Shown one piece after another: positions 6,182-48,893 of a DNA stretch of 64,000 nt. The translations under genes were made by a program, and so were the position numbers. The stretch comes from Abditibacterium sp. GTDB lineage: Bacteria > Armatimonadota > Abditibacteriia > Abditibacteriales > Abditibacteriaceae. The DNA lies in assembly GCA_965199495.1 (NCBI GenBank), contig CBDASK010000003.1, positions 512,001 to 576,000 on the forward strand, given 5' to 3'. Position 1 is the first letter of the stretch. Each line of letters starts with the position of its first letter. The notes under the pieces were generated by a model. That model had not been told where the DNA came from, searched no databases, and saw only the letters and a list, made by a program, of their open reading frames with translations.

Positions 6182-6301
6182 ATCACTTCCTTTTCGTTTT
6201 TGAACGGAAATTCTGCTCCGTTTATAGGCCAAAGCTGAATGTTTTTAGTCATGGCGATGAGTTATTTCCAAGTGCTTTACTCTTAAGAACCTGCGACGCG
6301 A

Positions 6302-6409
6302 ACGCTCGCGCTAAGAACTTGAGCTATCTCGCCAACCGCCAATTGAATGCGGTAAATTAATGGTTCGAAATTACGAGGGCGCGGCCAGAATAACCGAACA
6401 AAAACCGAA
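6302..6409 (-). repeat. conserved junction element copy 1 (att-like; orphan C-terminal peptide, stop at 6283-6285)
   Basis: ungapped alignment to 44003-44110 and 48757-48864; invariant CCAGAATAACCGAACAAA. Confidence 0.9.
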
Positions 6410-7204
6410 TATTAGTCCAATTTGCTTAATGGGATAAGTCGCGCTCGTCCTGCGTAAGTCTTATTTCTAATCTGAATAGGCGTCAAAGCCCAGTAGTCTG
6501 TGAATGGTAATCGGGCAACTCTGCAGAGTTTTTACGAAAGATTTCAGGGTATCTTTAGTGCCATCTACAGAAGGCACATTAATGCTAATATAATACGTCC
6601 GACATGACAATTGATACGGTTAAAGTTGTAAAAACCGAATCCGTAATGGAGATTAGCCTTCATCTTCTAGTTAATGGTATATTTTAGTATTATTTTCCTA
6701 AGAAGCTGTTAGCACGCTCGACTATTTTGTTGGCTTTGCGCGTGTAGGGGCGCTTTTGGCGATGCTCAATTGCGCTATTATTACATAATTGTTGAAAATC
6801 CAGACTTTTTTGCTGCCGTAGATGCCCGTGGCTTGGAGACAAACGTGAACCTTGCTTATCTCTGGCGGGGTCATTTCTGCTGAATCTAACTCGCGATTTA
6901 CTGGTGAGTATTGGGAGTGTTATCAAACCTCTTGTGGCGTGCTTTGGTAGCGTTTTGCGTGGGCAAAACAATGAATCTCAAGATGTTTTCCTTCGCAAAG
7001 CTCAGCCCTTTCTCTCTCTGGTAAGGGATTAGGGAATTCCAAATCTATGATGTTTTCCCCAATGGCTTCGCCGTTGCGCTCATTCCCGTTGTAAGCAGTG
7101 GGGGCACTCTAAGCGGTTCTTGTAGAAACTTCCTCATATAGCCGGGATTTCTGTCGAAAAGGCGGATATTTTTACAGAACTTTCACTTATTTAAACTTTT
7201 TGGT

Positions 7205-7894
7205 GTGCATTCTACATCCGAAACGGTTGCCCACTCACACTTAACGCCCGCCCAAAGACGGTTGACTATTCGCCTGATTTAAGCGCGTGAGCGAGCCGGA
7301 CTTCCGCGCTCTGGAGTGGCGGAGCGCACGGACTTTTCGCCGCAGGAAATCGAAGACGTTGAGACCGGAAGGCGCTTGCTCTATATGTGGTGCCGCGCGG
7401 TAGACGCTCCGCTTGCCGAGTTCGTTCGAGAGTTCGATGTGACCCCAAGCGCCCAGGAAGCGCAAGAGATGGCCGATTCGCAAAACACCTCATCGGGTGT
7501 TCCTAATGCACTTTGCGCCCTGCCCGAACTGCTGATGGTTGAAAACGCGCGCCAATCCATTAAGCATACCATTGAGGTGCCCTTGGGCATAACAAAGGTG
7601 CGCGCCTTTGTCACCGGCGACCCGACAACGCTTGGATTATCGGTTGCCGCCAGCACGGGGGCAATTGCGCCCGGGGCCGATAAACACGGCGAATGCACGC
7701 TGCTCTACCCGACCGCCGGGTTTATAGTGGTGGCCAGAGCGTTCGAGGGCGCTCTGGTGGCTCAGTCGGCGTTGCAACTGCAACTGGAGCTTGTCCTTGA
7801 CCGCTTTACACCCCAGCTCTCGCACGAAGCGGTCGAGAAAATCATGAGCGCGCATCCTGGTGGAGCTGCGTGGATGGCGGATTGCAACGACTAA
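7205..7894 (+). pseudogene. XRE-family HTH regulator with in-frame stop (TAA 7280-7282) and unknown C-terminal domain
   Basis: RLI*ARERAGLPRSGVAERTDFSPQEIEDVETGRR reads as a classic XRE HTH in frame with ORF 7316. Confidence 0.7.
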
Positions 7895-7933
7895 GGGTGA
7901 CAAGATGAAGGCGTAGAGCAAAGCCATGTTTCA

Positions 7934-8242
7934 TCAAATCACCTCATAGTTTTTGGTAGAGCCGTAGTGAACGTAAGTCTTTTGGACTTCACCGATCCAG
8001 AACAGTTCTTGCGCAGGCTTTCCCGTTTTTGACAACAAATTCAGTTCTTTGGCCAAGATATAAAATCTGGGGCCGGAAGCATTATCGATTTTGCTAACCA
8101 CCAAAGCGCTGGATAAGAAACCGAAGCGAGTCTGACTACAGGAGGAGATGTAATGCAAGTATTCGCCCATCAATGCCGTGAACTCTCGGCGTTGCTTCCC
8201 TGCTCTCGTGCAGCAAGGAGGCGAGCGGCCACAAACATTCAA
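7934..8242 (-). pseudogene. hypothetical protein fragment
   Basis: C-terminal half is protein-like (LSSALVVSK...FYILAKEL...FWIGEVQK); the 5' part is doubtful. Confidence 0.35.
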
Positions 8243-8606
8243 TCAGAATTGAACGATAAACGCCGGTTTTGCCGCCGCGCCCCTCTTCGGGCGGCGAAAG
8301 CGTAATCCCAGATGATCGAGATATTTTGGCATGAATGGCCCGATTTTTAATCAGATTGAGCGGCCCGTGACTCGCGGTCCAGATAAATACCGGCTAAAAC
8401 ACCAAGATTGTCGATAACATTGAGTTCCTGATACACGAAACCGATGCTCAGCGCAATGGAATCTTTCACATCGGCGATCTTTACCGGCGTTTAGTCCACC
8501 CAAATCTGGCCAAGCAAGAGTTGAAAGGTTTTATTGAATTTGAGATTAAAAGAGAAATTTCTGCCATTCGGGAGAGCGAGGCAGTTCAACGAGTCAGCAA
8601 ACATCT

Positions 8607-9716
8607 CTATGGGCGCGATTTCCAAGGGATGAGCTTGCCGCTTTTATCCAAAATTTTGCCCAGAACGGAAACGTTTTTCAGACCAATGTCCATTGTCGTC
8701 ATATCGCCCATCCATTGTAGCGTGCCCTGCGGGCCGATAATAAGCGAAGACTGGCCCTCGCCCCCAACAATTTCGCTCGCCCGCAGGATGCCACCGATGA
8801 CCGTCACTACTCCCTCGCCGCTCGCTCCGGCACCGATGATTAATTTTCGACATCCTACGGTGCCGCCCAGTATATTCAGTGTGCCCTTGCCGCCACGTCC
8901 GACAATCAAATCTTCCATGAACGTGGCTCGTCCACCACTTGTCGTCCAAGTTCCGGTCGCTTTTTCGCCGTCGCCGATGACGCTCGAATTATCGGCGTTT
9001 CCCACCGCGCGGCGCGCCGCGCCCGCAGCAAAGGTGCCGCCGCTCTGCATAACTTCGCCCGTCACTGCGCCATACTCGCGCCATTGCCCGACGATCATCG
9101 GGCCGGTTTCCAGAGTTCCGCTGTGCAATTCCAGGCTGGCTTGCGCGCCGTCGTTGTTGCCCACGATGAAGGCGCGGCGATTATTGTTGTGCTGCACCAG
9201 ACCGCCGTTGATTTGAAAGTCAGTGCCTTTGCCGGCCAGCGAAACCGTTTCGCTGTTGATGATAAACGACGCTTTATCGGCGACGCTCATCTTCATCGCG
9301 CCGCCATAGGAGCCGAAGTTGATACCGCCGTTGGCCACCAAAACGCCGTTGTCGCGCAACGCCAACTCGCCCTGAGAACCGGCTTGCTGTCCGCCCGAAA
9401 GCCAGTCCCACACCCACAACCGCGCGTCCCGCCCGATGACGACGCGCCCCGCGCCCACGCGGTCGCCCTCACCTGAACCGATGTCGAGATATTTGACCGA
9501 TTCGCCTTGTAAGCGATTGTCCACCAAAGATACTGTGCCGCCGCGCACGACTTTGGCGGCGTCCTCTTTGCCGGGCAACTTGTCACCCCAGTTAGCGGCA
9601 CTGTTCCAGTCACCCGCGCCGCCCGTCCAAAATCGGTCGGCGGCCCGCGCCGCTGAAATTGTCGCAGTTAAAGTCAGGGCTACGATGCCCGCGAAAATCG
9701 AATTTTTCATCCCCAC
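8607..9716 (-). CDS. secreted Gly-rich beta-helix (autotransporter-passenger-like repeat) protein
   Basis: signal peptide, WTGGAGDWNSAANW, repeated L-x-V/I-G...G-x-L-x-x-x-GG. Confidence 0.7.
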   Translation of the reverse strand: MGMKNSIFAGIVALTLTATISAARAADRFWTGGAGDWNSAANWGDKLPGKEDAAKVVRGGTVSLVDNRLQGESVKYLDIGSGEGDRVGAGRVVIGRDARLWVWDWLSGGQQAGSQGELALRDNGVLVANGGINFGSYGGAMKMSVADKASFIINSETVSLAGKGTDFQINGGLVQHNNNRRAFIVGNNDGAQASLELHSGTLETGPMIVGQWREYGAVTGEVMQSGGTFAAGAARRAVGNADNSSVIGDGEKATGTWTTSGGRATFMEDLIVGRGGKGTLNILGGTVGCRKLIIGAGASGEGVVTVIGGILRASEIVGGEGQSSLIIGPQGTLQWMGDMTTMDIGLKNVSVLGKILDKSGKLIPWKSRP

Positions 9717-11182
9717 TCCGCCCCGGCTTGCGCTTTCATTAACTGCGCTCGGTCACCCGTCGTGACCCACCACTGCACCTTTTCTGTGGGCTTGTTCCAC
9801 ACCAACGTTGCCACGCTGCGCGCTGGCAACGTGACGCGCGCAGTTTGGCCGCTCCATTGGAGCGCCAGTGGTTTGGGAGCGACGTTTTCGTTGAGCGCGA
9901 TCAACACGTTCGAGCCATCTGGGTTCTGAAAGGCGACGGTATTCTGGTCGTCCGAAGCGATGCGGCGAGCGCCCACGCGCAGCCATTTGGCGGCATGACC
10001 CAGCGCGTAAAACTCCGAGTTGCCCTCAATATCACCGCTTTGCGCGCTCACCGTCACCACGCCGCGACAGTTGGCGCAGCCGCCGTCGAGCTTGGGGCCG
10101 AAGCCTTCGTCTAAAGCCATATTCCACTTGGCCACGGTTTTAGCCCAATTGCGCGTGGCGCCGATCACCAGATTTTTGGTGCTCCATATCAAATTATCGT
10201 CGAAGTCAGGTGCCCACGCGCCGCTCGAACATTCGGTGAAATAGATGTTTTTGTCTGGAAAGACATCGTGGACTTTCGACTGCGCGCTTACATCGCCGCC
10301 GTAGCAGTGAAACGCCGAGCCGTCCACATACTTGCGAGCCTCGTCGTTTTTCAGGACGTTGATCGCGTAACCAGGAGCGTCCCAGTTGTGATCCCAGGCG
10401 ATGATGCGCGTTTTAATGCCGTCGCGCTCGAACGCTTTGCCGACTTCGATGGCGAGTTTGGCCTCCTGCCAGTCGGGAAGTCCCATCGTCGGATAGCTGG
10501 CGTTTTCGTTCCACGGCTCATTTTGCAAGGTGACAGCACCAATTGGCACGCCTTCCGCCGCGTAAGCTTTGGCGAAACGCGCGAAATACAAACCCGCCGC
10601 TTTATAAACGGCGTCTTCGTCCCGCAGAATGCCACCAAAAAGATGGCGTCCGCGCTTTTTGAGTTTGGGATTGTCGGTCTTGATCGGGTTCTTCATCCAC
10701 GCGGGCAGACTCCACGGCGAAGCCATGATAAAAATAGTGGGATTAATGGTCAGCGACTCTTTCAAAACCGGCAAAATCGTGGCGCGATCTTTATCAATCG
10801 AGAAGTGCTTCATCTCGAAATCCTCTTCGCCCGGCGGCACATCATCGTAGGTATAATCGGACAAACGGAAATCGCTCGAACCCATCGGCTGCCGCAGAAA
10901 ACTCAGGCCCATGCCGCTTTGCGGATCGAAGAGACGCTTGAGATTATCGCGCCGCTGCGAGGGAGTCATACGGCGCATGAATAGTTCGGCGCTCGAATCG
11001 GTGAATGACGCGCCGAACCCATCCATACGCTGAAATTTCTGGCTCGAATCCACGTTAATTATCCAGACCGCGTCCTGCGCGACGGCGCGCTGAGACAGGT
11101 AAAAACCCGCGCCTACCGCGCCACACATCGCCACACAAATGCCGATTGTGGCAATGGGCGCAGTTGCAAATTTGAATTTCAT
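9707..11182 (-). CDS. glycoside hydrolase family 30
   Basis: GFGASFTDS, PMGSSDF, ASPWS, QNEP acid/base, FTEC nucleophile. Confidence 0.9.
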   Translation of the reverse strand: MKFKFATAPIATIGICVAMCGAVGAGFYLSQRAVAQDAVWIINVDSSQKFQRMDGFGASFTDSSAELFMRRMTPSQRRDNLKRLFDPQSGMGLSFLRQPMGSSDFRLSDYTYDDVPPGEEDFEMKHFSIDKDRATILPVLKESLTINPTIFIMASPWSLPAWMKNPIKTDNPKLKKRGRHLFGGILRDEDAVYKAAGLYFARFAKAYAAEGVPIGAVTLQNEPWNENASYPTMGLPDWQEAKLAIEVGKAFERDGIKTRIIAWDHNWDAPGYAINVLKNDEARKYVDGSAFHCYGGDVSAQSKVHDVFPDKNIYFTECSSGAWAPDFDDNLIWSTKNLVIGATRNWAKTVAKWNMALDEGFGPKLDGGCANCRGVVTVSAQSGDIEGNSEFYALGHAAKWLRVGARRIASDDQNTVAFQNPDGSNVLIALNENVAPKPLALQWSGQTARVTLPARSVATLVWNKPTEKVQWWVTTGDRAQLMKAQAGAEWG

Positions 11183-11219
11183 GTTGATTGAAAAGCCACC
11201 GTTTTTAATCTAAAATGCT

Positions 11220-12272
11220 TCAGTTCCTCTGCGGCGGCGCTTGCGCGGCTGCGAAAGCATCGAGCGCTGGGAGCGCGCGTCCGGCGCGGTCAAAAAGCGC
11301 GCGCCCTTCCCACGAGGAGGCGTGCCCGGCGATTGCGATCCATTCGGGCGCCCACCAAATCACGCCGCGCCCCAAATCATCAGGCAAGGCGCGCATGATG
11401 CGTATCACGGCTTCCAGATAGCGAAGTTGCCCGGCGGGCGAGGCTTCAAACTCCAGCGATTTGGCGTCGGCACCGTCCCACACGCCGCGTTGCGCCGAGG
11501 CGCCTACTTCAACCAGAACAATCGGTTTGCCGAAGGTTTCCGCCGTTCGCTTCATGTTGTCCTCGAACAGTTCGAGCACGCCGTGAAAAAAGGGATAATA
11601 ACTCTGGCCGATCAGATCGTAGGTTAGCCCGTGCGACTCGACCGCTTCGAAGAACCAACGAGTGGTTTTCCCGTCGGCGCCGCGATCGATGTGAATCATG
11701 ATTTGCGGCGAATACTCGCCCGCACCTTCGCAGACGCCGCGCGTGCCCGCTTCGATAAGCGCCGCCAAATTAGCAAAGTCGCCGTTCTGGTTCTGGGCGC
11801 CATCGGGCCACATCATGCCGTTGGTGATCTCGTTGCCGATCTGCACGATGTCGGGCATCGCGCCCTGGACGCACATCGCTTCGATGGTTTCGCGCGAATA
11901 GCGGCGCACGGTTTCGCATAACGTGGCGCCGTGCAAATTGTCCCACGCTCGCGGTTTAGGCTGATGGCCCGGATCGGCCCAGGTGTCAGAGTAGTGAATA
12001 TCGAGAATCAAAAGCATTCCCGCCGCTTTGATGCGCCGTCCCAACGTGATGGTTTGCGCCAGATCGGAAGTAAAAATATCTTCACCCGACGGATTGCACC
12101 ATAATCGTAGACGCATACAGTTGCAGCCGCGCGCGCCGAAAATCTCCAGCAGATCGCGCTTCTGGTCGCCATCGAAATAACGTTGGCCCAGGCGCTCCAT
12201 GCTCGCTAAAAGCGAGATGTCACCGCCAGTTAAAAAAGGGAGATGAGACATAAAATATGAGGGAAGTCTCAA
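11220..12272 (-). CDS. GH53 endo-1,4-beta-galactanase
   Basis: GGDIS, RLRLW, DIHYSDTWADPG, QIGNE, WWAPEW. Confidence 0.92.
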   Translation of the reverse strand: MRLPSYFMSHLPFLTGGDISLLASMERLGQRYFDGDQKRDLLEIFGARGCNCMRLRLWCNPSGEDIFTSDLAQTITLGRRIKAAGMLLILDIHYSDTWADPGHQPKPRAWDNLHGATLCETVRRYSRETIEAMCVQGAMPDIVQIGNEITNGMMWPDGAQNQNGDFANLAALIEAGTRGVCEGAGEYSPQIMIHIDRGADGKTTRWFFEAVESHGLTYDLIGQSYYPFFHGVLELFEDNMKRTAETFGKPIVLVEVGASAQRGVWDGADAKSLEFEASPAGQLRYLEAVIRIMRALPDDLGRGVIWWAPEWIAIAGHASSWEGRALFDRAGRALPALDAFAAAQAPPQRN

Positions 12273-12274
12273 TC

Positions 12275-14551
12275 CTATTTCGCGGCGGCGATGCCCACAT
12301 CAATGCCCTGTCCGCCCACCGTTTGGTGAACGTGAATCGCCCAGACATTTGCACCCGGCTTGAGCGCGGCGCGTGCCGCGTCGCTCATCGGCACAGCTCT
12401 ATAATCGCCGTCGTAATTCGGCACCGTCGCCGCCAAAACACCGTTGATGTAGATGTCGGCGTCCTCGTCGTGCTTGACCAGCAAATTCAATTTGGCGGGA
12501 ATCTCGTTGGGCAAAGTGAACTGGCGGCGCATCCAAATATCGCTGGTTTCCCACGGCGTGCGCACACCGTTCATGTTGTTACCAAAGGGCGCGTCGCCGG
12601 TTTTCCAAGCCGCATCGTTGAAATCGGTCCGGAACCAGTCGTCGGCGGGTTTATCGGTCGTGTAGTGCCACGAGAGCGGTTCGTCGTCTGATGTCGGCAC
12701 GAAATCGGGATTGGGATTAGGCGGCAACGGCAAAAATTCGCCTTTGTTGGCGGCAGCCATAATTTTGGGATCGAGCTTTGTTACCGAACGATCATAAGTC
12801 AAAGCACCGTTAATTTCCTGTTCGACATCGGTCAGTTGGGTATAAACAAAGGCGCTGGTGCCGCGATCGGCGTGCAATTTATAGGCGGTTTTCATCAGGT
12901 TTTGAAACCGTTTGGTCGCCAGCCAACTCGAACCCAGAGTCGAGCCGTAGCCCATCACGTTCGCCTCGTTTTTCCAGCGATGCCCTAAATCCGCCGTGAT
13001 ACCGCCGAATTCGCCGTTGACTGCCGCGCGCGTGGCTTCGGGTTCGTTCGACCATGGGCCGGGATAAGCGTGAGTGTCGTGAATATCGCCGACGTTTCTG
13101 TCCACCCAGCCGCTGGCGTTGTTGACCAAACGCGTCGAATCCCACTGCTTTGTCTCGGCGACCACGCGTTCGGTGTCGTGCTGGCCCCAACCTTCGTTGA
13201 ACGTCGTCCACACCACAATCGAAGGAGAGTTATAATGTTCGCGAATGATTTCTTTCCACTCGGTATCGAACTGAGTTTTGGCAGCGTCAGAAAGCGCGCC
13301 GTTTGGGCCACCGAACATCGAGGGCATATCCTGCCAGACCAACATTCCCAATTTGTCCGTCCAATAATACCAGCGATCCGGTTCGACTTTGGCGTGTTTG
13401 CGCAGCAGATTCCAACCCATATTTTTGGCAGCCACGATGTCATACTTCAGTGCATCATCGGTGGGAGCGGTGTAAATTCCGTCGGGCCAGTAGCCCTGAT
13501 CGAGCGCGCCGACCTGAAGATAAGGCTTGTTGTTCAACCCCAAAACTGTGCGGCCCTGCGCGTCTTTGACCATCGAAATTTTGCGCATCGCCGCGTAAGA
13601 ACTTACGCTGTCGGTGCCCATCTGCACCTTCACACCATATAAATGCGGCGTTTCGGGCGACCACAAAACCGAATTACTGATGGGAATCGTCAGTTCGGTA
13701 TTGGCGGTGCCTTTCTTAGTAGCGACGACTTTTGCGCCGTCGGAAACCGTGACTGTAACCGGCGCGTTAAGCGGCGCGGCGCCTTCCGAAATCACAGTGA
13801 CTCGCAGGCTGGACGCATCCACATCGGGCGCGATTTTCAGGCTTTCGATGCGCGCGGCGGGCACCGGTTCAAGCCACACGCTCTGCCAGATGCCAGTCGC
13901 GGCGGTGTAGAAGATGCCGCCTGGATGCAGACGCTGTTTGCCCAACGGCTGCGCATCAGCCACGTCGGCTTTGACCGGATTCACCACGCCGACGATTAAT
14001 TCGTTTTGTCCGGGCTTGAGTTGCGGTGTGATGTCGAACGAAAACGCGTCGTAGCCGCCGGTGTGTGCGCCAATGGATTGACCGTTGAGCATGACGCTCG
14101 CGTCGTAGTTGACGGCGCCGAAGTGCAGCAAAACGCGTTGGCCCTTCCATGCGGCGGGGACGGTAAAGCTGCGTTTATACCACAATTTCTGCGTGGGAAT
14201 CGAAGGTTTGCCCACGCCCGAAAGAGCTGATTCGTAGACAAACGGCACCAGAATCTGATCGCTCATGGCGGCGGGCGCGCTCGCCGTGGCTGCATCGGTC
14301 AATCCGTAACTCCACAAACCGTTGAGGCTTTGCCAGTTGGCGCGCGTCATTTGCGGGCGCGGATATTCGGGCAGCGCGTTTTGGGGCGAAACCTGTTTGG
14401 CCCACTGCGTTGAAAGCGAAACTGGAGCCATTTTCCACGGCGTTTGAGCATGGGCACCAAGGGCAAGAAAGCCGACGCAAAGCGGAACGGCGAGAAATGA
14501 GGTTCGAGTTGAATGCATGATTTTCATTGGATGTAAAGTGGATTCGGACAA
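12275..14551 (-). CDS. GH2 glycoside hydrolase, secreted, with C-terminal beta-sandwich
   Basis: EYPRPQ, LHFGAV, LDQGYWPDG, FNEGWG, GEFGG. Confidence 0.9.
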   Translation of the reverse strand: MSESTLHPMKIMHSTRTSFLAVPLCVGFLALGAHAQTPWKMAPVSLSTQWAKQVSPQNALPEYPRPQMTRANWQSLNGLWSYGLTDAATASAPAAMSDQILVPFVYESALSGVGKPSIPTQKLWYKRSFTVPAAWKGQRVLLHFGAVNYDASVMLNGQSIGAHTGGYDAFSFDITPQLKPGQNELIVGVVNPVKADVADAQPLGKQRLHPGGIFYTAATGIWQSVWLEPVPAARIESLKIAPDVDASSLRVTVISEGAAPLNAPVTVTVSDGAKVVATKKGTANTELTIPISNSVLWSPETPHLYGVKVQMGTDSVSSYAAMRKISMVKDAQGRTVLGLNNKPYLQVGALDQGYWPDGIYTAPTDDALKYDIVAAKNMGWNLLRKHAKVEPDRWYYWTDKLGMLVWQDMPSMFGGPNGALSDAAKTQFDTEWKEIIREHYNSPSIVVWTTFNEGWGQHDTERVVAETKQWDSTRLVNNASGWVDRNVGDIHDTHAYPGPWSNEPEATRAAVNGEFGGITADLGHRWKNEANVMGYGSTLGSSWLATKRFQNLMKTAYKLHADRGTSAFVYTQLTDVEQEINGALTYDRSVTKLDPKIMAAANKGEFLPLPPNPNPDFVPTSDDEPLSWHYTTDKPADDWFRTDFNDAAWKTGDAPFGNNMNGVRTPWETSDIWMRRQFTLPNEIPAKLNLLVKHDEDADIYINGVLAATVPNYDGDYRAVPMSDAARAALKPGANVWAIHVHQTVGGQGIDVGIAAAK

Positions 14552-14636
14552 ATTTTAGCGGACAAATGGTTTGCTGCGTTAGTGTGTGGACCAAATTGGT
14601 AAGTCAACTGAAGAGTTTGACTGACCAAAAGAACTA

Positions 14637-14652
14637 AGTTTAACGTAAAACT
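14637..14652. promoter_or_regulatory. candidate LacI-type operator AGTTTAACGTAAAACT
   Basis: CG-centred palindrome; related sites at 17210-17225, 21495-21508, 14953-14966. Confidence 0.5.
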
Positions 14653-14947
14653 AAGGGTGCATCATATAGCTGACTTTCTCTTCCAACGTCATCTGTGCGA
14701 GTAGTTCCCACGCCGTGGCCGTCTCGCGGACGTAAACGGCTTGGCCGGGATTGACCGGCGCGGCAAGAGCGCCGTTTGCCGTTAAAGTCGCCGCCCTCAG
14801 TAACAGGGTCAAGCCGCCAGCGCGAACGGCGGTTGCCGTTGGTGTTTTCCAGATCGAGCGTCGAACAATAGATTTCATGGGAAATATGAGTGAGATTTCG
14901 TGTCGTGTTTGATTCCGGTCTTTTCGGGATGATTGGGTCAGTTCCAT
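14651..14947 (-). pseudogene. truncated N-terminus of a GH3-like glycosidase
   Basis: signal-like segment, then LLAQMTLEEKV, then an early stop. Confidence 0.55.
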
Positions 14948-14978
14948 AAATTTCGCGCGTTAAAGTTAGAACGCCGCA

Positions 14979-16400: not shown

Positions 16401-16402
16401 CT

Positions 16403-17191: not shown

Positions 17192-17209
17192 GAAAGTAAA
17201 TCTCCTCCA

Positions 17210-17225
17210 AGTTTATCGCTAAAGT
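17210..17225. promoter_or_regulatory. candidate LacI-type operator AGTTTATCGCTAAAGT
   Basis: CG-centred palindrome about 20 nt upstream of the prepilin gene start. Confidence 0.5.
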
Positions 17226-17390
17226 AGCGAACTGAATTTATTATACCCAGATTGCGACATTTTCAAACATTTCTGGGAAATTTTTTCGATTTTTAGAATT
17301 CGCCGTCAGCGAAAGCCATCCTTAACTGCGAACCGTAAGCGAGCAGCCACGTTCACGCCATTGAGCTTGGACGTGACAGCTCGCTCGTAC

Positions 17391-34782: not shown

Positions 34783-34797
34783 AGACGGAAAACAAAA

Positions 34798-36530: not shown

Positions 36531-36568
36531 ATGGACGAGCAAAAAGCGCTTGAGATAGGGCAAACGAA

Positions 36569-38422: not shown

Positions 38423-38463
38423 GCGATCATGTGCGGCCAAACCAAAATTTAAAAGGAAACACA

Positions 38464-38937: not shown

Positions 38938-39028
38938 CGGTCGCCATTCAACAATTAAGTTTCAGTCTCTTTGCCTTGTAAAAAGCGGCTGACACCCAAA
39001 TTTACGCACATTCAAACGACATTCAACC

Positions 39029-39919: not shown

Positions 39920-39983
39920 ACCGACGATTCGATCCGGCGGCGGACAGCAGCCACGCCGCCGGACGATGGGAGAATCACAGAAT

Positions 39984-40403
39984 ATGACGACCGAACCCAC
40001 CTTGCCGATGAGCGCCCGCCGAGGACGACAAAAGAACCGCGTTACCAGCGCACTGCCCGGCGTCGCGCGCGTGTTGCTGGGATTGTTCCTGCTGGCCAGT
40101 GGCATGGCGGGTCTGTTCCATCTGACGCCACCGCCGCCACCGAATATGCCCGAAGCCGCCGCCGCGTTCGACGCGGGACTGATGCAAGCGGGCTATATGA
40201 TGCCGCTCATCTTCGCAACCCAGGCCGTTGTCGGCGCGCTACTGCTGCTCAACCGTTTCGTGCCACTGGCTCTGGCGCTACTCGCGCCGTTTTTGGTCAA
40301 TGCGTTCGCCTTTCACCTTTTCCTGATGCCACAGGGCTTGTCGTCAAGCGTTTCTGCCGATGCTTTCGATGCGAGTGAACCCCAATGCGCAAAATTTAGA
40401 TGA
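39984..40403 (+). CDS. DoxX-like membrane protein, probably 3'-truncated
   Basis: ARVLLGL...RFVPLAL..LAP..VN...FH. Confidence 0.65.
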   Translation: MTTEPTLPMSARRGRQKNRVTSALPGVARVLLGLFLLASGMAGLFHLTPPPPPNMPEAAAAFDAGLMQAGYMMPLIFATQAVVGALLLLNRFVPLALALLAPFLVNAFAFHLFLMPQGLSSSVSADAFDASEPQCAKFR

Positions 40404-40475
40404 CGTAACTTTCCGTTCTAATTGATTTCGGGAGTTCAGTCGTAACATCTTTATATCATTTAGGAGATATGCCAA

Positions 40476-40898
40476 ATGAAACCAAGAATTTCTGTAATTA
40501 CACTCGGCGTTGAAGATTTGGAGCGTGCTGTTCAGTTCTACCGCGATGGTCTTGGTCTGCCAACCGACGGCATCGTTGGTCAAGAGTTTGAATATGGCGC
40601 CGTCGCGTTTTTTGATTTGCAGACTGGACTGAAACTCGCCGTTTGGCCGCGCAAAAGTATTTCTCACGACTCCGGCCTTCCGTGTGGCGCCCCAAATCCC
40701 ACAGAACTTACCCTTGGACACAATGTTTCGTCGTCTGCCGAAGTTGATGAGGTTATGCAGCAGGCCAAGGACGCGGGGGCAGTTATCGTGAAACCAGCGC
40801 ACGACACATTTTGGGGCGGTTACGCCGGTTATTTTCAAGACCTGGATGGCCATTTATGGGAAGTAGTCTGGAACCCACAGATGCTACCGATGGATTAA
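40476..40898 (+). CDS. VOC/glyoxalase family protein
   Basis: ITLGVEDL...FWGGY.GYF.D.DGHLWE. Confidence 0.92.
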   Translation: MKPRISVITLGVEDLERAVQFYRDGLGLPTDGIVGQEFEYGAVAFFDLQTGLKLAVWPRKSISHDSGLPCGAPNPTELTLGHNVSSSAEVDEVMQQAKDAGAVIVKPAHDTFWGGYAGYFQDLDGHLWEVVWNPQMLPMD

Positions 40899-41007
40899 GG
40901 CAGGGGCAGACGCATAGTAGTTGTCTCGTTTGCGCGCGGCGTTGCTGAAAGCCGTGACATTTGTAGTGGGAAGACGATTGTATAAAGGAGACAGAAGAAA
41001 ACAAAGA

Positions 41008-41565
41008 ATGACAAATAACCATCACACCAAAGTCATTCCCAACAGAACGGCGGAATCAGCCGCTATGGCGGCAAGCGTCACACGAGCTATGGCTATCACC
41101 GCTCATCTCAACCGTTTGACGTTCAGCGATGCGGATGAAATACGAGCCTTGTTCAGCGAACTCATCGGCACGCAAGTGGACGACAGCTTTTTGTTGATTC
41201 CACCGTTCTATACAACCGGCGGCGCTGATATCCGTGTAGGACGTAATGTTTTCGTCAATCAGAACTGCACTTTTTATGACCTTGGCGGACTCGATATTGC
41301 TGACAATGTGATGATCGGGCCAAATGTAAGCCTCATCACGTCTGGTCATCCCATTGAACCCTCTGAGCGCTTCGCTTCCGTAATCGCAAAGCCTATCGTG
41401 ATCGAAAGCAACGTATGGATTGCAGCCGGTGTAATTATCATCGGTGGCGTGACAGTGGGCGAAAACTCGGTGGTCGCGGCTGGCTCAGTTGTCACCAAGG
41501 ATGTGCCCGCAAACACGCTCGTCGGAGGAAATCCAGCGCGAGTCATTCGCTCGATTGGAGATTGA
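41008..41565 (+). CDS. maltose/galactoside O-acetyltransferase (hexapeptide repeat)
   Basis: IGPNV, VAAGSVVTKDVP, GNPARV. Confidence 0.9.
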   Translation: MTNNHHTKVIPNRTAESAAMAASVTRAMAITAHLNRLTFSDADEIRALFSELIGTQVDDSFLLIPPFYTTGGADIRVGRNVFVNQNCTFYDLGGLDIADNVMIGPNVSLITSGHPIEPSERFASVIAKPIVIESNVWIAAGVIIIGGVTVGENSVVAAGSVVTKDVPANTLVGGNPARVIRSIGD

Positions 41566-41801
41566 GGAAACGGAGCCGCTTAAGATACGATTCATCACGC
41601 GGGGCAAATCGCCTATATTCAAACTTTGCTTGGCGATAACGAAATCCACTTTGACGAATCGGCGCTCCCTGACTGGGCTGTGGGGTGACTTTTTCGACGA
41701 TGCGTCGTGTTAGGATGCACAGACGAACCAACACACACGACAAGCTCACGCGCTACGTGCAGAGTTGTTGACGGCACAGATGTGAAACACGTAAAACAAA
41801 T

Positions 41802-42509
41802 ATGATCAATTCCGCCAAAAAATTCGACCCGGCGCGTGCGGGCGAGTATGAACAGCAAAGCCGCATTGCGTTAGCAGGCTATGAAGCGTGCCACGAACTG
41901 ACAGCCTGTATGCTGGCGGCGTCACTCGGAAGCGGTGGCACCGCGAAGATATTAGTTGTGGGCGCTGGCGGCACGGCACGAGAGATTCTTACCGCCGGAA
42001 GGTTGGAACTCGGTTGGCAATTCACAGCGGTCGATCCTTCGCAGCCCATGCTCGACTTGGCCGTTTCCAAATTGCAAGAGCATGGTCTCGACGCGCGCAC
42101 GCACGTTCATTTGGGCACTGTGGACGATCTTCCTCCCGACGAGCGTTTCGATGCAGCCACGTTGATCGGCGTGTTGCATCACTTGCCGGGCGACGAGGCA
42201 AAGCAGGCCATTTTACGTTCTATCGCAGCCAAGCTCAAACCCAATGCGCCGCTCATTTTGGCCTGTAATCATTACGCCTATGCCAGCCAGCCGCTTTTGC
42301 TAACGGCTTGGGGCGAGCGTTGGCGGATGAATGGCGCAGCTCCCGATGAAGTCAAAAGCAAACTCGCCAAGATTCTTCAGGGAGCCGACCCGCCGCATTC
42401 GGAAGAAGCTGTCGCCCTATTGCTCAAAAACGCGGGCTTTGAGCCGCCGCTGCGGTTCTTTTCCAGCCTGTTTTGGGGCGCGTGGCTGTCACTGCACGCG
42501 GCAACGTAA
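41802..42509 (+). CDS. class I SAM-dependent methyltransferase
   Basis: ILVVGAGG, VDPSQPML. Confidence 0.88.
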   Translation: MINSAKKFDPARAGEYEQQSRIALAGYEACHELTACMLAASLGSGGTAKILVVGAGGTAREILTAGRLELGWQFTAVDPSQPMLDLAVSKLQEHGLDARTHVHLGTVDDLPPDERFDAATLIGVLHHLPGDEAKQAILRSIAAKLKPNAPLILACNHYAYASQPLLLTAWGERWRMNGAAPDEVKSKLAKILQGADPPHSEEAVALLLKNAGFEPPLRFFSSLFWGAWLSLHAAT

Positions 42510-42518
42510 ACAACGTTC

Positions 42519-43068
42519 TCAGATGTTTTTGACTACATCGGGGCCGGTAACGATTTCAGAACTTTCGCAGTCCCATCCCAACCAAAGATCGAGCTTGCCC
42601 ACGGCACGAACTTTAGTCAACTTGATGTCGGGATTTATGTTCGCGCCGAGAATTATTTTTGCGCCCAAGTGCCCGCAGAAATCCCGGAAGTTCGCAAAAT
42701 TCCTGTGCTTACTGCTACCGACTGGCTCTCCAAAGTTTTGCACCAGCATTAGAGCCCTTCCTATGACTCAGGCTACACCTGCGGGGCTAATGCCCTCTTC
42801 CAATCGGCGAAGTTCCTCGAAAGCGCGCCGATTGGAAGAGGGCGTTAGCCCCGCCGAGCATTGTAGCTCTCAAGTTAGGAAAGGCTATACCACCGAAGTC
42901 GCGTAGAAACGCCGCGCTTCTAATAGATAGAGCAGCGGCAGTGTGGTAAAACAGTTGGCAACGCAAATTGCTCAAGTCCGCGAAGTCGTCATGGGGCTTT
43001 AGACCAAGCGAGTCGCATAAACCCCGCAAAAGTGTCTGGCGCTCTGTGACACGCCAAGCGCCAGACAC
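42519..43068 (-). pseudogene. DUF6946-like gene fragment interrupted by a MITE
   Basis: LRCQLFYHTAAAL-LEARRF...VMLVQNF...LWLGW after removing the insertion. Confidence 0.6.
42752..42887. mobile_element. 136-bp composite MITE with TA target duplication
   Basis: outer imperfect TIR, inner 29-bp inverted repeat (42781-42809 / 42826-42854), TA at 42750-51 and 42888-89. Confidence 0.8.
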
Positions 43069-43116
43069 GCCTGAGGCGCCGTAATGGCTGATGATGGCGC
43101 TGATTTAATCAGAGCT

Positions 43117-43352
43117 TCGATCATCTCGAACTTCCGATTGGGTTGTCTGCCGAGAAGAGTGAAATAGCCTTTTTTAAATGTTGCGCTGGCGCGCCAACGC
43201 TTCGATCTTGCGGCGCAAACGGCCCTTCTCTATAGCCAGTCCCAAGGCGTTGAGTTCATCGGGAGCGGTCAATAGGTCCGCGTTTTGACTTTCTAACTCT
43301 TTGCGCCAGCGATTCAGGCTCCAGTCACTCACGTTCAGCTCGGCAGCCACGC
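43117..43352 (-). mobile_element. IS3-family OrfA transposase fragment
   Basis: VAAELNVSDWSLNRWRK...LRRKIEALARQRNI.KKAI. Confidence 0.7.
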
Positions 43353-43457
43353 CTAAGGAACTCTATGGAAGCCGCCTCTGCTCGAATAATTCGCCGAATT
43401 TTGGTCACAGATTTGGCACCTCAAAAATTGCCAGTAGAAATAGCCTTTAGCTGCGGA

Positions 43458-43978
43458 TTAACAACTGTTGATCAGCAGTGTGGTAGCAGCTATGGCAAGA
43501 AGCACCATCAAAGTATCTTCGGCACTCGATCCAGTAGTAATGCGCCATTTCTGCTTCAGCAGGTAAAACCTTTTGGTATCTGGATAAAACAGCCGAATCC
43601 CGCTTTTGGTCGCCGCATCACCAAGCAGGGAACTGGCGTAACCAAGAACCAAAGCCATAACTGGCGCCCAGCCAATCCAAAGTAATAAAGGCGCCGACAC
43701 GAACGTAATCATGCCTATCCCCCGGACTGAATGAAGCAATCCGCGATGTTGATCCGTGCGATGCACGACCTGAGCGGGTAACAAGAACGGTTTAAAGTTG
43801 GTGCCGAGGATTTTGAGATGCTTAATTTTAGACTCCGAGGCGTCGAGGTCAGGCAGCAACGCGCCTAAAACAGCACACGCAGCCAACGTCCCCATATCGG
43901 ATCCAACGTATTCTGCGGGAATGAGCGCAAAACCCAAAGCGAGTTGATACCCAAAAAAGAGTGTGTTGGCCAGGTCAT
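43458..43978 (-). pseudogene. YdjM-like hydrolase copy 2, 1-nt frameshift near 43930
   Basis: MTWPTHSFLGINSLW then ALIPAEY...GALLPDLDASESKIKHLK; close paralogue of 5654-6181. Confidence 0.85.
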
Positions 43979-44002
43979 ATCGCCTCCTTTCCGGCGACTC
44001 TC

Positions 44003-44110
44003 ACGCTTGCGCTGAGAACTTGAGCGACCGCGCCGACTGCCAATTGGAACCGGTAAATCAATGGTTCGCAATTATGGGGGCGAGGCCAGAATAACCGAAC
44101 AAAACCCGAA
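44003..44110 (-). repeat. conserved junction element copy 2
   Basis: ungapped alignment to copies 1 and 3; the peptide stop overlaps the YdjM-like ATG. Confidence 0.9.
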
Positions 44111-44143
44111 CTTCTCGAATTGAGAAGTTCGGGTTTTGTTTTT
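44098..44143. terminator. intrinsic terminator-like hairpin
   Basis: AACAAAACCCGAACTTCTC-gaatt-GAGAAGTTCGGGTTTTGTT plus T run. Confidence 0.75.
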
Positions 44144-44597
44144 GGTCACATAAACTCAATTTGTTGATAGCAACCATTTAATAATTATTAAAATTCGCAT
44201 TCTAATTGTCATGCTTTAAATGATAGTTACTGCCATTGCGCGCGGTTTAGCTATCTGTCAAAATGGTTGATTGAAGTAAAAATTTATCGTTTAGAATTTC
44301 GCTGACCCGCAGTTCGCCCGACTGAAATCGGCGTTGCCCGATTTGAAAAATAACGGTCGAATTCGACGATTCAACCCGACAATTAAAGCCGAGGGCTTTA
44401 TAATCAAGCGTTTTTGTTATTGTCGTGAGCAATGAACTTCTGCGATTTCGTCTTTCTAATCTTTATTTTCCATTACTCTTTGCGTTGCGTTTTCGCATTT
44501 ACAAAAGGAGCCGGATGTAAGATACGCATACTTCGTTTACCTCTAATTAAGGTTGATGATTTTGCTCGCTGGCGCCACTTCAGGCTTTGATCACGCC

Positions 44598-47405
44598 ATG
44601 AATCTCTCTTCTTCTCACGATTCTTCCCGTTTTGGTTTAATAGCGGCCTGGCAATGGTGCCTGAAGATTTTATTGACGCGCACGATTTGGGTGCTGACGC
44701 TTTTGTTTTGCTTCAGCGCCGGTTTGGTGTTCTGGCATTTTTCTCGGCTTTCGTCGGAACTCATGCGTTTGTCGGCGCTGCAAAGTGCGCCCGAATACTC
44801 CAAAATTCTGACCGAAACGCGCGCTTTTTACACCTCCGACGTGGCGGGCCGCGCGCGCGGTCATGGCGTTGATGTCACTCCCAATTACAAGAAGAAAGCG
44901 GGTTCGATCCCGATTCCCACGACCTTCACGTTAGAACTTGGCGAACGATTGAGCGCCAATGAAAAAGGCGTCAAGGTGCGGCTTTATTCGCAGTATCCGT
45001 GGCCGCAACGCCGCAAGACGGGCGGGCCGCGCGACCAATACGAAACCGAAGCTCTGCGTTATTTAATAGGAAATCCCGACAAGGAATTCGTAAGTTTCGA
45101 GAATTATAAAGGCCGTCCCTCAATTCGCTACTCGACCGCCGACATCATGCGACCCGCTTGCGTTTCCTGCCATAACACGCGAGCCGACAGCCCCAAAAAA
45201 AATTGGAAAGTTGGCGATGTGCGCGGCGTGCTCGAAGTCGTGCGGCCTCTGGATAAAGTCGTCGCGCAGACCAACGACGGGTTGCGCGGCACTTTTATGC
45301 TGATGTTTTTGCTGGGCGCTATCAGTCTGGCTTCCATGTCGCTGGTGTTTGGCAACCTGCGGCGCAACGCGCGCGAACTCGAAGGCCGCGTTGCGGAGCG
45401 CACGCAGGATTTGAGTCATGCCAACGCCGAACTGGCGCTCGCCAAGGAAGCCGCCGAAGACGCCAACCGTTCCAAAAGCGCGTTTCTGGCGACGATGAGC
45501 CACGAAATTCGCACCCCGATGAACGCCGTCATCGGCATGAGCGGTTTGTTGCTCGATACGCCACTCAGCACCGACCAGCGCGAGTTTGCCGGTCTAATTC
45601 AGCACAGCGGCGATGCACTTTTAGGCATTATCAACGACGTTTTAGACTTTTCCAAAATCGAGGCCGGGCACATGGAACTCGAATCTCAGGCGCTCGATTT
45701 GTGCGACTGCATCGAATCGGCGTTCGATATGGTCGCCATGCGCGCGGGCGAAAAAGGTCTGGAATTGGTCTACGATTCCGGCCCGTGCACCGACGGCGGC
45801 TCGGATGTTCCGCAGGCCATCATGGGCGACGTAACGCGGTTGCGCCAGATTCTGATTAATCTGCTGGCCAACGCGGTCAAGTTCACTCCGGCGGGCGAAA
45901 TCGCGCTCACCGTAGCGGCGCGCAAATTGGCGGAGCGTGAATACGAATTGAATTTTGCCGTGCGCGATACCGGCATCGGCATCGCGCCCGACCGCATGAA
46001 CCGTTTGTTCAAATCGTTCAGCCAGGTTGATGCCTCGATTACGCGCCAATACGGAGGCAGCGGTTTGGGCCTCACCATTTCCAAAAGGTTGTGCGAAATG
46101 ATGGGCGGCACGATGTGGGCAGAAAGCGACGGCGAAGGCCGGGGTTCGACATTTCATTTTTCGATTCGAGCCGAAGCCGTCGAAGCGCCGCCACGCCGTC
46201 ACCGCCAAATCGGTGCGGCCTCATCATTGGAAGCCCGACGCGTTTTGATCGTGGATGATAACGCCGCCAACCGCCGCATTTTGTCGCTGCAAGTGCAATC
46301 GTGGGGCATGAGGGCGCGCGCGACCGCGTTGCCGAGCGAGGCGCTGCAATGGCTGCGCGCGGGCGACCCGTTCGACATCGCCATTCTCGACTTTCAAATG
46401 CCCGGCATGGACGGATTGATGCTCGCCCACGAAATTCGTCATCTGCGCGACGCCGAAACGTTGCCGCTGGTGATGTGCACCTCCATCGGACGGCGCCTGA
46501 CCGATGCCGACAGCTTCGATTGGGCCGCATTTTTGACCAAACCCATCAAAGCCTCGCAACTCTTCGACGCCCTGGTGAACGCGTTGGAAGAGGAAACGGA
46601 TTCGGCGCCGCTCGAAGTCGCGGCGCCCGAAACTTCGGCGCCGCGAGTTGCCACCGTGCCGCTGCAAATTTTGTTGGCCGAAGATAACGCGGTCAACCAA
46701 AAAGTCGCGCTGCGCCTGTTGGATCGGTTGGGCTACGGCGCCGATGTCGCGGGCAACGGCGTGGAGGCACTGCAAGCGTTGGAGCGGCAAACTTACGACG
46801 TGGTGTTGATGGACGTGCAGATGCCGGAAATGGACGGCTTGGAAGCCTCGCGCCGCATCTGCCAAACTTATGCGCGCAACCGGCGACCGCGCCTTATCGC
46901 CATGACTGCCAACGCCATGCAGGGCGACCGCGAGATGTGTCTGCAAGCGGGCATGGACGATTATCTGAGCAAACCGGTGCGCAGCGAAGAACTCGCCGCC
47001 GCACTGTCGCGTTGCCAGCCGCTCGCCGCCGCGCTGCAAACTCCGGCACAAACCGAGGCGGCGCCCGTGGCTACTTCCCAGGACGAAGAGGTTTTGGACG
47101 CCGAAATTCTAAGCCAATTTCGGGAAGCGATGGGCGAAGATTTCATGCCCGAACTGATCGAGGCTTACGTGCAGGATTCGCAAGCGCTAACCGAGGCGAT
47201 GCAAAACGCGCTCGCCGGTGGCGACGACGAAGCGCTACGCCGCGCCGCGCATACTTTGAAATCGAACAGCGCCAGCGTGGGCGCGACTCGACTGGCGGCG
47301 CTGTGCCGCGAACTGGAACAATCGGGCCTCACGGACGAAGCCGCAGACCGCGTGCAACACGTCGCCATCGAGCGCGATAAAGTGCGGCGGGCGCTGGAAA
47401 ACTAA
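44598..47405 (+). CDS. hybrid sensor kinase: haem-c (DUF3365/Tll0287-like) sensor, HisKA, HATPase, 2x REC, Hpt
   Basis: CVSCH between two TM helices; [15 protein letters not shown]; two receiver domains; AHTLKS. Confidence 0.93.
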
Positions 47406-47408
47406 AAA

Positions 47409-48566
47409 ATGGCGGCTACAATCCCGCCCTTTTTACCTCTTATGAACACTCACCCCGGCACACTTTTGGTCGTGGACGATGACCGGATGCAACGCATGAT
47501 TTTATCGCGTTGCCTGAGTCAACAAGGCCACACCGTCGAGGCCGTCGAAAACGGTGCGCAGGCCTTATCGCGGCTGCTCGATCAGAAATTCGACGCGGTT
47601 TTACTCGACGTCAAAATGCCCGAAATGGACGGTTTTGAAGTGCTGGAACGCATTATGAACCACCAGACTTTAAAGCAAATTCCCGTTATCATGGTATCGG
47701 GCGTCGAAGAGATGGGCGGCGTGGTTGCGTGCATCGAGATGGGCGCAGCGGACTATTTGTATAAACCGTTCGATCCTTCGCTGCTACGCGCGCGCATCCA
47801 AAATTGTCTGGAAAAGAAGCGCTCCCACGACCAGGAAATCTCGCTGCGCGCTCAACTTCAGGACAAATATAATCAGTTGAGCGAACTGGAAAAGTTGCGC
47901 GACAGCCTGACCAGCATGATCGTCCATGACCTGCGCACGCCGCTGACTTCGCTGCTGACGGGACTGCAAACTGTCGAAATGGTTGGCGAACTCAACGACG
48001 ACCAGAAAGAAATTTTTCAGTTGTCCATAGACGGCGGCGAGCAGTTGTTGTCCATGATCAACGATTTACTCGACGTTTCCAAAATGGAAGACGGCTCGAT
48101 GACGCTCGACCGACAACCCGTCGAAATTCCCGAATTAGTGAGCGGCGCGTTGCGCCAAGTCGCTCCGTTGGCGCAGGAAAAACGCATCGCGCTCACGACT
48201 CAACTCGCGCCCGATTTGCCGTCGCTCGCCCTCGACGAAAACAAACTGACGCGCACCATTGTGAATCTGCTGGGCAACGCTCTCAAATTCACGCCCGTGG
48301 ATGGCGCGGTCACCGTCACGGCGAAACACGAGAACGATGAATGCGTTTTAAGCGTGCGCGATAACGGCGAAGGCATTCCACGCGAGGCGTTCGAGCGCGT
48401 TTTCGAGAAATTTGGCCAAGTGGAGACGCGCAAGGCGGGCCGCAAAATGTCCACCGGACTGGGCCTGACGTTTTGCAAACTCGTCGTCGAAGCCCACGAC
48501 GGACGCATCTGGGTCGAAAGCGAAATCGGTCAGGGCAGCACGTTCTCTTTCGCCCTGCCCTGTTGA
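47409..48566 (+). CDS. REC-HisKA-HATPase hybrid kinase
   Basis: LVVDDD, LLDVKMP, HDLRTPL, GLGL. Confidence 0.93.
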   Translation: MAATIPPFLPLMNTHPGTLLVVDDDRMQRMILSRCLSQQGHTVEAVENGAQALSRLLDQKFDAVLLDVKMPEMDGFEVLERIMNHQTLKQIPVIMVSGVEEMGGVVACIEMGAADYLYKPFDPSLLRARIQNCLEKKRSHDQEISLRAQLQDKYNQLSELEKLRDSLTSMIVHDLRTPLTSLLTGLQTVEMVGELNDDQKEIFQLSIDGGEQLLSMINDLLDVSKMEDGSMTLDRQPVEIPELVSGALRQVAPLAQEKRIALTTQLAPDLPSLALDENKLTRTIVNLLGNALKFTPVDGAVTVTAKHENDECVLSVRDNGEGIPREAFERVFEKFGQVETRKAGRKMSTGLGLTFCKLVVEAHDGRIWVESEIGQGSTFSFALPC

Positions 48567-48756
48567 AGTTCATTCACAAAACATACGCTAAGTTTGAACC
48601 AATTTTCGTATTTTGAGAGCGTAAAGACCGAGGAACACGCTGCACCACCCGACCATCATCGAGAAATAGTAATAATTGGAAATCTGGTTGAGTTCCACAT
48701 CTCAGCTTTGCAGCGATTTTCTTGAAATATCGCTTTACAGAGAAACAGAGCCCTTT

Positions 48757-48864
48757 ACACTCGCACTTAAAACTTGAGCAACCGCGCCAACGGCCAATTG
48801 GAGGCGGTAAATCAGTGGTTCGCAATTGCGAGGGCGCGGCCAGAATAACCGAACAAAGACCAAA
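48757..48864 (-). repeat. conserved junction element copy 3
   Basis: ungapped alignment to copies 1 and 2; contains the TCGCAATTGCGA palindrome. Confidence 0.9.
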
Positions 48865-48893
48865 CAGAAATTAATTTCTGTTTGGTCTTTTTT
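48855..48893. terminator. terminator-like perfect 36-bp palindrome plus T run
   Basis: AAAGACCAAACAGAAATTAATTTCTGTTTGGTCTTT. Confidence 0.75.

Follow-up and report, generated by a model that had tools for sequence, protein, structure and literature searches.

The stretch of DNA analysed here (hereafter the window) comprises 64,000 nucleotides of contig CBDASK010000003.1 of Abditibacterium sp. (assembly GCA_965199495.1), and it contains three copies of a short coding repeat. These copies are very probably the detached 3′ ends, 34–37 codons long, of the gene for a large serine recombinase (LSR), carried by an integrative island whose target is the 3′ end of tRNA-Asn(GTT). The anatomy of the insertion, its break point, the architecture of the attachment (att) sites, the geometry in relatives and the protein-level constraint on the tail were all observed directly, and they are laid out below. 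Coordinates with the prefix C3 refer to the contig that bears the window, window positions are counted within the 64,000-nt stretch, G and L numbers are our handles for genomes and loci, and the genome measures 4.8 Mb.

The copies lie at window positions 6302–6410, 44003–44111 and 48757–48865 and align without a gap, with pairwise identities of 92/109, 92/109 and 91/109. A BLASTN search of the entire genome with copy 1 gave 17 scored candidates, of which three matched at E ≤ 0.01, all inside the window, and TBLASTN of the three peptides against the same genome returned no fourth copy, the next-best match having E = 0.73. Translation of 29 codons on the minus strand revealed 13 invariant codons, 11 that vary only synonymously and 5 that change the amino acid; the Nei–Gojobori ratio of nonsynonymous to synonymous differences per site (pN/pS) among the three copies is 0.17. 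An in-frame stop is found 8 codons upstream in copy 1 and 19 in copy 2, with no ATG, GTG or TTG in between; in copy 3 the frame is open for 56 codons, hairpin included, with TTG at −7 and GTG at −52. The frame ends 5, 8 and 6 codons past ...SASV in copies 1, 2 and 3, respectively. The preliminary description of this DNA had been accurate on all of this, from the indel-free copies beginning at 6302, 44003 and 48757 and their peptides to the exact hand count of codons, the upstream stops, the copy 3 frame running through a hairpin and the frame ends within 5–8 codons; the genome-wide search that it called for found the copies confined to the window and three in number. The mutual pS of the tails is ~0.5 and hence they are no local duplicates; by their sequences, they come from lineages that split while the tail was under selection. 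A ydjM gene (PF04307, Pfam), missed in the preliminary description, comes after copies 1 and 2 on the same strand, and the repeated unit there is therefore ~700 bp rather than 108 bp. Nothing ydjM-like was found downstream of copy 3. The ATG of ydjM2 overlaps the stop of tail 2 (ATATGA), which is the arrangement of operon genes.

A recombinase or tRNA at the ends of the array had been proposed as a check, and both were found at C3:415.8–417.5 kb in the form of an LSR gene and tRNA-Asn (Table 1). The array had been called integrase-less, which does not hold, as the cognate LSR sits at the tRNA end, upstream of the window. The protein carries the Pfam domains of a large serine recombinase, namely PF00239 Resolvase (1.7e-26), PF07508 Recombinase (8.3e-15) and PF13408 Zn_ribbon_recom (3.2e-08), and every recognised domain precedes the junction. 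The LSR open reading frame (ORF) overlaps tRNA-Asn by 62 nt in antisense; following 551 codons, its final 19 codons run antisense through the tRNA and end in ...WPGRTRTSDKSVNSRPLYH.

The connection between this gene and the tails was provided by related loci. Over residues 1–191 of a tail-bearing LSR ORF in the metagenomic locus L050, our LSR is 67% identical, and window copies 1–3 match residues 186–219 of the same ORF. The homology between our LSR and the metagenomic tail-bearing LSR genes ends exactly at the W codon. In alignment A3, eight LSR C-termini are similar up to W/C-P and then continue into two alternative tails. LSR C-terminus, tail and ydjM are contiguous in three metagenomic loci (L050, L054 and L048) and in L024 of genome G010, and in all four the tail frame, followed upstream, meets no stop before it reaches the C-terminal half of the LSR. 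The sequence before the junction is nearly identical between L050 and the tRNA-fused LSR of G003, so that one LSR lineage has been observed in both states. The 3′ ends of LSRs of our own type (L048) bear tails of the copy 1–3 type. Among 5.8 billion proteins five full-length relatives were found, and every one of them finishes with the antisense-tRNA tail, in some form. An AlphaFold model of the L050 C-terminal fragment (mean predicted local distance difference test, pLDDT, 57.7) shows a predicted long helical hairpin at residues 41–100 with a block-mean pLDDT of ~76–84; the tail is helical, but its pLDDT is below 50. Taken together, the LSR-continuous frames, the junction analysis and alignment A3 bear out the earlier suggestion that site-specific recombination has split a gene and that the repeat is its 3′ portion; of the two options then offered, they single out a recombinase tail that becomes whole only on the excised circle. 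The other option, a host target gene given a new 3′ end, is not supported, since the target is a tRNA, lies on the opposite strand and stays intact.

Comparison of 33 junctions, with half-sites read outward from the junction, placed the break directly 5′ of TGG, or of TGC where the tRNA variant ends ...GCA. This point is just past the acceptor stem, and the tRNA therefore stays whole. The identity common to the four junction types is C/TGGCC, or C/TGCCCC with the variant tRNA, the slash marking the break. In the half-sites P and P′ the motif TTTC(G/T)AACC ends at nt 26 from the junction, giving a 52-bp dyad, and in B, the tRNA arm, TCGAACC ends at nt 21. A passage of Rutherford et al. (PMC3783163) describes for the LI integrase an outer motif that is 5 bp nearer the centre in attB than in attP. 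The att sites found here have both the dyad attP of ~50 bp and the 5-bp inward shift in attB that are expected of an LSR, matching the LI integrase. The flank of copy 3 agrees at 50/60 nt with the flank of the empty site in G011, one stem difference being compensatory, and is therefore the original 3′ flank of tRNA-Asn. The flank of copy 2 follows that of copy 3 for its first ~23 nt and then has a different terminator, and copy 1 retains ~23 nt only. The hairpins noted in the preliminary description are tRNA terminators, native ones in some cases. Other hairpins (−25 kcal/mol plus a T run) form a substitute terminator inside the LSR 3′ coding region, which takes over once the island stands behind the tRNA. 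In G008 (L032/L058, G008:C244:1250-2960), the tRNA-Asn 3′ flank with its terminator is present twice, identical over 53 nt, once beside the tRNA and once beside a tail 1.4 kb off; the two copies bracket only one DUF4143/AAA_14 ATPase gene, and the pair may hint at the way in which the attB half is restored.

The same geometry recurs in relatives. The peptide is present in 7 of 13 Abditibacterium genomes (E ≤ 1e-6), often in multiple copies per contig, and a profile search of 1.84 billion representative proteins gave only three true matches. In all five genomes whose tails share a contig with tRNA-Asn, they are directed towards the tRNA, which lies on the opposite strand, at distances of 1.4 kb in G008, 85.6 kb in G004, 74, 114 and 250 kb in G006, and 128 and 170 kb in G010; in our genome the distances are 102.5, 140.2 and 144.9 kb. 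At least one tail was found in each of the six genomes (6/6) that have a long LSR beside tRNA-Asn. In G006 (L027, L029, L028) a second, divergently oriented ydjM gene or fragment lies 220–775 nt upstream of tails a and b. Two codons ahead of W, G006a and G006c have TGA, where the other copies have TGG or TGC; selenocysteine was considered at this codon, which is better read as part of a decaying LSR 3′ end. At L034 (G004:C3:568247-568437) we observed a ~160-bp repeat that matches at least 10 places of the genome bearing the window, in both orientations (e.g., C3:66760, 937717, 1505509 and 2630241) and that looks like a family of miniature inverted-repeat elements.

The evidence for selection was obtained from 21 distinct tails drawn from genomes and metagenomes. 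For this set pS is 0.54 and pN 0.17, a ratio of 0.31, and the peptide frame contains 0 stops, while the remaining five frames contain 10–53 stops and give pN/pS of 0.5–2.1. Variable columns number 30/33 at third codon positions, 19 at first and 15 at second. The codon families of Arg (CGC/AGA/CGA) and Leu (CTC/TTA/CTG) are exchanged with the residue unchanged. In all 21 copies the conservation starts exactly at the recombination junction. Neither a conserved tag-like C-terminal end in the tail nor a Pfam match for the tail peptides at E ≤ 10 was found. Judged from these substitution patterns, the detached tail is plainly under protein-level constraint, and this argues for a functional role of the tail swap, beyond a simple overlap.

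These observations suggest the following mechanism. The LSR reading frame crosses the island's own attP, and integration therefore parts the 551-codon body, left at the tRNA end (attL), from the conserved tail, which together with ydjM comes to lie at the far side of the island (attR). At attL the body reads on for 19 codons antisense through the tRNA. On excision, body and tail would be rejoined in frame with ydjM directly behind the LSR, and in the circular form ydjM1 would be the first gene after it. Judged by composition and matching lineage (the L048 tails of own type), copy 1 would be the attR of a mobilisable island of 102.5 kb and at present pair with attL, and the other two copies are best read as older attR-type relics of diverged elements whose own recombinase is lost. 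The tail would presumably be translated only from the joined form, be it circular or tandem, and matter for LSR function there. As a tentative extension, which we consider possible rather than probable, the tail exchange may act as a state switch in which the circular or tandem-joined form makes an LSR with the conserved tail and a co-transcribed ydjM, and the integrated form an LSR with the 19-residue antisense-tRNA tail.

Several observations weigh against the detached-tail interpretation or complicate it. No intact full-length LSR with the conserved tail was found: in the four cases where body and tail are contiguous the body is decayed or truncated, and all five intact LSR proteins from the databases represent the integrated state. 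Conservation of the motif in the B′ half-site is loose. All three window junctions are B′/P, whereas a simple tandem model predicts P′/P at the inner junctions; such P′/P inner junctions are present in G006, G010, L048, L050 and L054, and the window array, with its B′-type junctions, does not fit this model. The block between copies 1 and 2 is mostly genome-like in tetranucleotide composition. Synteny is too scrambled to prove insertion into an empty site; G004 is scrambled, and G011 is common only upstream, where the neighbour of the tRNA is shared at 93% amino-acid identity. In one public run, examined as assembled contigs, which lose rare variants, the integrated junction has a depth of ~30 and no contig of the empty site or attP is present. 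A separate observation from the same run is a loose end at position 3898 that resembles the LSR 3′ end of another strain.

Two alternatives concern the peptide itself. It might be a self-contained small protein of ~39–65 aa encoded upstream of ydjM, with its own start and a variable N-terminus. An in-frame ATG, GTG or TTG does lie upstream in 5 of the 10 first-examined copies, G001 has an AGAGGA-like stretch before MRYSWPRPR, gene callers predicted ORFs of 64 and 65 aa (P0001 and P0003), and the stop overlaps or abuts the ydjM start in copy 2 and in G004. However, a small protein or type I toxin should have its own start in every functional copy, and a possible start codon is missing from the other 5 of these 10, two of them with a stop just 2 codons before W, so that the peptide is not a stand-alone gene. 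Since the frame is continuous with the LSR C-terminus in L050, L054, L048 and L024 and conservation begins at the junction in 21/21 copies, the apparent N-termini being tRNA terminator or LSR sequence, we regard this explanation as highly improbable. Somewhat less remote, yet still very unlikely, is that the tail is meaningless read-through of an LSR already complete before attP, with a conservation that acts at the DNA level on the P half-site and the control signals of ydjM. The recognised LSR domains indeed all precede the junction, the P half-site is the first 26 nt of the tail, the DsiB C-termini of Dehalococcoides are described as divergent in passages of McMurdie et al. 2011 (PMC3146451), and AlphaFold gives the tail only a helix of low confidence. 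What speaks against it is that the constraint is codon-aware far past the half-site, as seen in the excess of variable third positions, in the stop-free frame with its low pN/pS and in the Arg and Leu codon-family switches with the residue kept.

The remaining alternatives concern the array and the DNA. The reading favoured in the preliminary description, an array in the manner of integrons or SCC elements whose cassettes are each mobilisable, with the single LSR acting in trans, would account for three direct attR-type sites facing one attL, with potential circles of 102.5, 140.2 and 144.9 kb, and for tails that differ and hence belong to different lineages; passages of McMurdie et al. 2011 (PMC3146451) describe tandem ssrA islands without integration modules as possible cis-mobilisable elements. 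This arrangement seems unlikely all the same. The inner borders have no attL-type or P′-type site, and blocks 2 and 3 therefore cannot excise themselves by attL × attR recombination; the 37-kb block is compositionally genome-like, and ydjM2 is frameshifted. The preliminary description had called the array integron-like, and this part is not supported, since IntI and attC are missing, each repeat consists of a coding tail with a tRNA flank, and the blocks measure 4.7–102 kb, unlike the small promoterless cassettes of an integron. There is no tyrosine integrase in the array either; the three PF00589 matches in the genome (C3:3.99, 4.21 and 4.34 Mb) are >3.4 Mb away. Least credible of all is a structured RNA (small RNA, leader or pseudo-tRNA) on the plus strand ending at the hairpin. 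The plus strand does read GGTTCGAA...GGCCA followed by a terminator, and is tRNA-like at its 3′ end, but its variation has a period of 3, and neither Rfam at the gathering score nor ARAGORN gave a match in the window. A pseudo-tRNA was rejected because no consistent similarity to tRNA-Asn extends beyond the 26-nt half-site (z −0.8 to 3.3 in 6 copies). Two further candidates were dismissed, namely an origin from the Mrr_cat gene lying ahead of the third ydjM at C3:446.3–447.1 kb, of which the repeat would be a relic (hhalign probability 0.3%), and a link to IS200, as Y1 transposase fragments occur near some copies with no consistent relation to them.

Table 1. Features of the tRNA-Asn-anchored insertion (window positions, unless prefixed).
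Feature	Position	Strand	Remarks
LSR body gene	C3:415837-417546 (L037:3837-5546)	-	570 aa; 94.5 kb before window start
tRNA-Asn(GTT)	L037:3822-3895	opposite to LSR	ARAGORN
Island E1	C3:415894-518387		102,494 bp; from tRNA-Asn/LSR (outside window) to copy 1
E1, distal 6.4 kb	1..6387	-	HATPase/MarR pair, Bil-like set, ydjM1, tail 1 (Pfam)
Bil-like ubiquitin-type set	2048-5652		Multi_ubiq+DUF2604, Metal_CEHH, Prok-JAB, Prok-E2_C+ThiF
ydjM1 (PF04307)	5657..6181	-	intact, 174 aa
Copy 1, LSR tail	6286..6387	-	34 codons (WPRPRNFEPL...VRVAGS), stop 6283-6285; P half-site 6362-6387
B′-type half-site by copy 1	6388..6410	+	21/23 nt as native tRNA-Asn 3′ flank; no terminator hairpin beyond
Block copy 1–copy 2, 37 kb	6411..43457		glycoside hydrolases, LacI regulator, DUF6785 transporter, IS200 Y1 fragment, detoxification enzymes
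ydjM2	43458..43978	-	single frameshift near codons 17-25; 69% identity to ydjM1
Copy 2, LSR tail	43978..44088	-	37 codons, stop 43975-43977; P half-site 44063-44088
B′-type flank of copy 2	44089..44146	+	tRNA-type terminator hairpin, −34 kcal/mol, then T run on + strand
Block copy 2–copy 3, 4.75 kb	44553..48566	+	hybrid histidine kinase, response-regulator kinase
Copy 3, LSR tail	48738..48842	-	35 codons, stop 48735-48737; P half-site 48817-48842
Native tRNA-Asn 3′ flank and terminator by copy 3	48843..48899	+	145 kb from tRNA; outer end of whole insertion

The preliminary description had also held that the copies delimit blocks of cargo, and this stands in part. The block that ends at copy 1, which holds the Bil-like genes and extends 102.5 kb to the tRNA (island E1), looks foreign; the other blocks do not. 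The tetranucleotide distance rises from 0.11 to 0.24–0.34 at the tRNA, against a genome 95th percentile of 0.166, and returns to 0.12 right after copy 1. E1 contains genes for mobilisation (a TrwB-type (T4) coupling protein, Replic_Relax and ParB) along with DUF932, and further a second LSR, an Mrr_cat–ydjM pair, TIR and E2/JAB genes, defence genes, and cargo clusters for copper, mercury, arsenic and RND efflux. Its tRNA at one end and att site at the other, together with its foreign composition and its transfer genes, are the features of a tRNA-targeting island. No full type IV secretion set was found among its Pfam matches, and E1 therefore looks mobilisable rather than self-transmissible. 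Genes for metal resistance are densely packed within C3:457–510 kb (L075–L077), with three RND/HlyD/OEP efflux sets, two P-type ATPases, cupredoxins and a multicopper oxidase, along with MerT/MerA-like, ArsR/ArsC/Acr3-like and CsoR-like genes. A second, fused E2_A–ThiF–JAB protein is encoded at C3:441.4–443.7 kb (L036:3453-5729). The third ydjM of the genome, at L036:8329-9656 (C3:446.3–447.7 kb), is translationally coupled to the upstream Mrr_cat gene, which resembles restriction endonucleases, and has as neighbours the second LSR, a Phage_rep_O-like gene and a pentapeptide–TIR gene; this region may be a nested element within the 102-kb island.

Within the 37-kb block, two ORFs (27272–27853 and 27810–28241) make up a split GH53 gene, which adjoins a 91-aa IS200-type Y1 transposase fragment at 28336–28611. 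The match in G004 of a transporter gene of this block (E2) is uninformative on E2 because a paralogue lies elsewhere. In 5 genus genomes the 4.75-kb block had no relative exceeding 56% identity. Just past the insertion, at window positions 49633–53466, there are two adjacent genes of the animal haem peroxidase family with a GC content of 0.60–0.63 and odd composition; the peroxidase gene right of the insertion, used as query, had no relative in the 5 genus genomes.

Known systems share parts of this layout. SCCmec elements (CcrAB) are driven by serine recombinases, use a single chromosomal site, with rlmH as target, and form arrays with recombinase-less members; we know of no split recombinase gene among them. 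A close precedent is DsiB, a CcrB-like serine recombinase of Dehalococcoides, for which passages of McMurdie et al. 2011 (PMC3146451) suggest that full function may require the circle or an adjacent island that supplies a 3′ fragment; a meaningless read-through was roughly proposed there as the trivial case. The same passages describe ssrA islands that, as here, are tandem, bounded by repeats and downstream of a small-RNA gene, some of them without integration genes (cis-mobilisable, accretion) and with ParB in the module. They differ in the target, which is the ssrA T-loop with a 20-bp repeat there and tRNA-Asn with a crossover after the acceptor stem here, and in the C-termini, reported as divergent for DsiB and protein-conserved here, as well as in the phylum, which is Abditibacteriota in our case. 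No DsiA-like small serine recombinase was found by the LSR, the adjacent ORFs at L037:5733-6316 having no Pfam match; thus one feature of the ssrA-island integration module is present, and the combination of DsiA and ssrA target is not.

In the Myxococcus phage Mx8 (IntP/IntX), as described in a part of the review PMC6070905, attP likewise lies within int and integration gives a new 3′ end, altering the enzyme and not destroying it; that enzyme is a phage tyrosine recombinase, unlike the serine recombinase of a 100-kb island found here. The archaeal SSV-type "suicidal" integrases, in the passages of Badel et al. 2020 (PMC7253208), have attP in the ORF, a tRNA target, halves at opposite ends and tandem-derived hybrids. 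These are tyrosine recombinases left as two inactive pseudogenes and, according to that paper, are so far restricted to archaea, whereas ours is a serine recombinase of which only the last ~35 residues are swapped, the catalytic and DNA-binding domains being undivided. For the integration-dependent immunity of the mycobacteriophage BPs, the abstract of PMC4557955 reports attP in a gene and C-termini that differ between the free and integrated forms (by 33 residues there; 34–37 here), a difference that serves as a state switch; there the split gene is a repressor and the lost tail an ssrA-like degradation tag, unlike the recombinase here. No further serine integrase gene spanning attP was found directly in the literature, and the matching passages of Durrant et al. 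2022 (PMC10083194) are silent on the point. The split-tail layout is thus already on record (DsiB and Mx8), and the new point is that the detached tail is constrained at the protein level, which bears on the question that McMurdie et al., in the passages cited, left open for DsiB.

An orphan coding repeat has thereby been turned into a precise map of a 145-kb tRNA-Asn-anchored insertion, with exact att junctions, recombinase and target, in a little-studied phylum. For annotation, startless conserved C-terminal peptides next to terminators can flag the far ends of serine-integrase islands, and natural LSR/attP/attB triplets with defined half-sites are of practical interest for genome engineering. 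If the tail exchange is indeed a state switch, the two forms of the LSR would differ in activity, direction or stability, and the structure of the gene itself would control directionality, in addition to or in place of a separate directionality factor.

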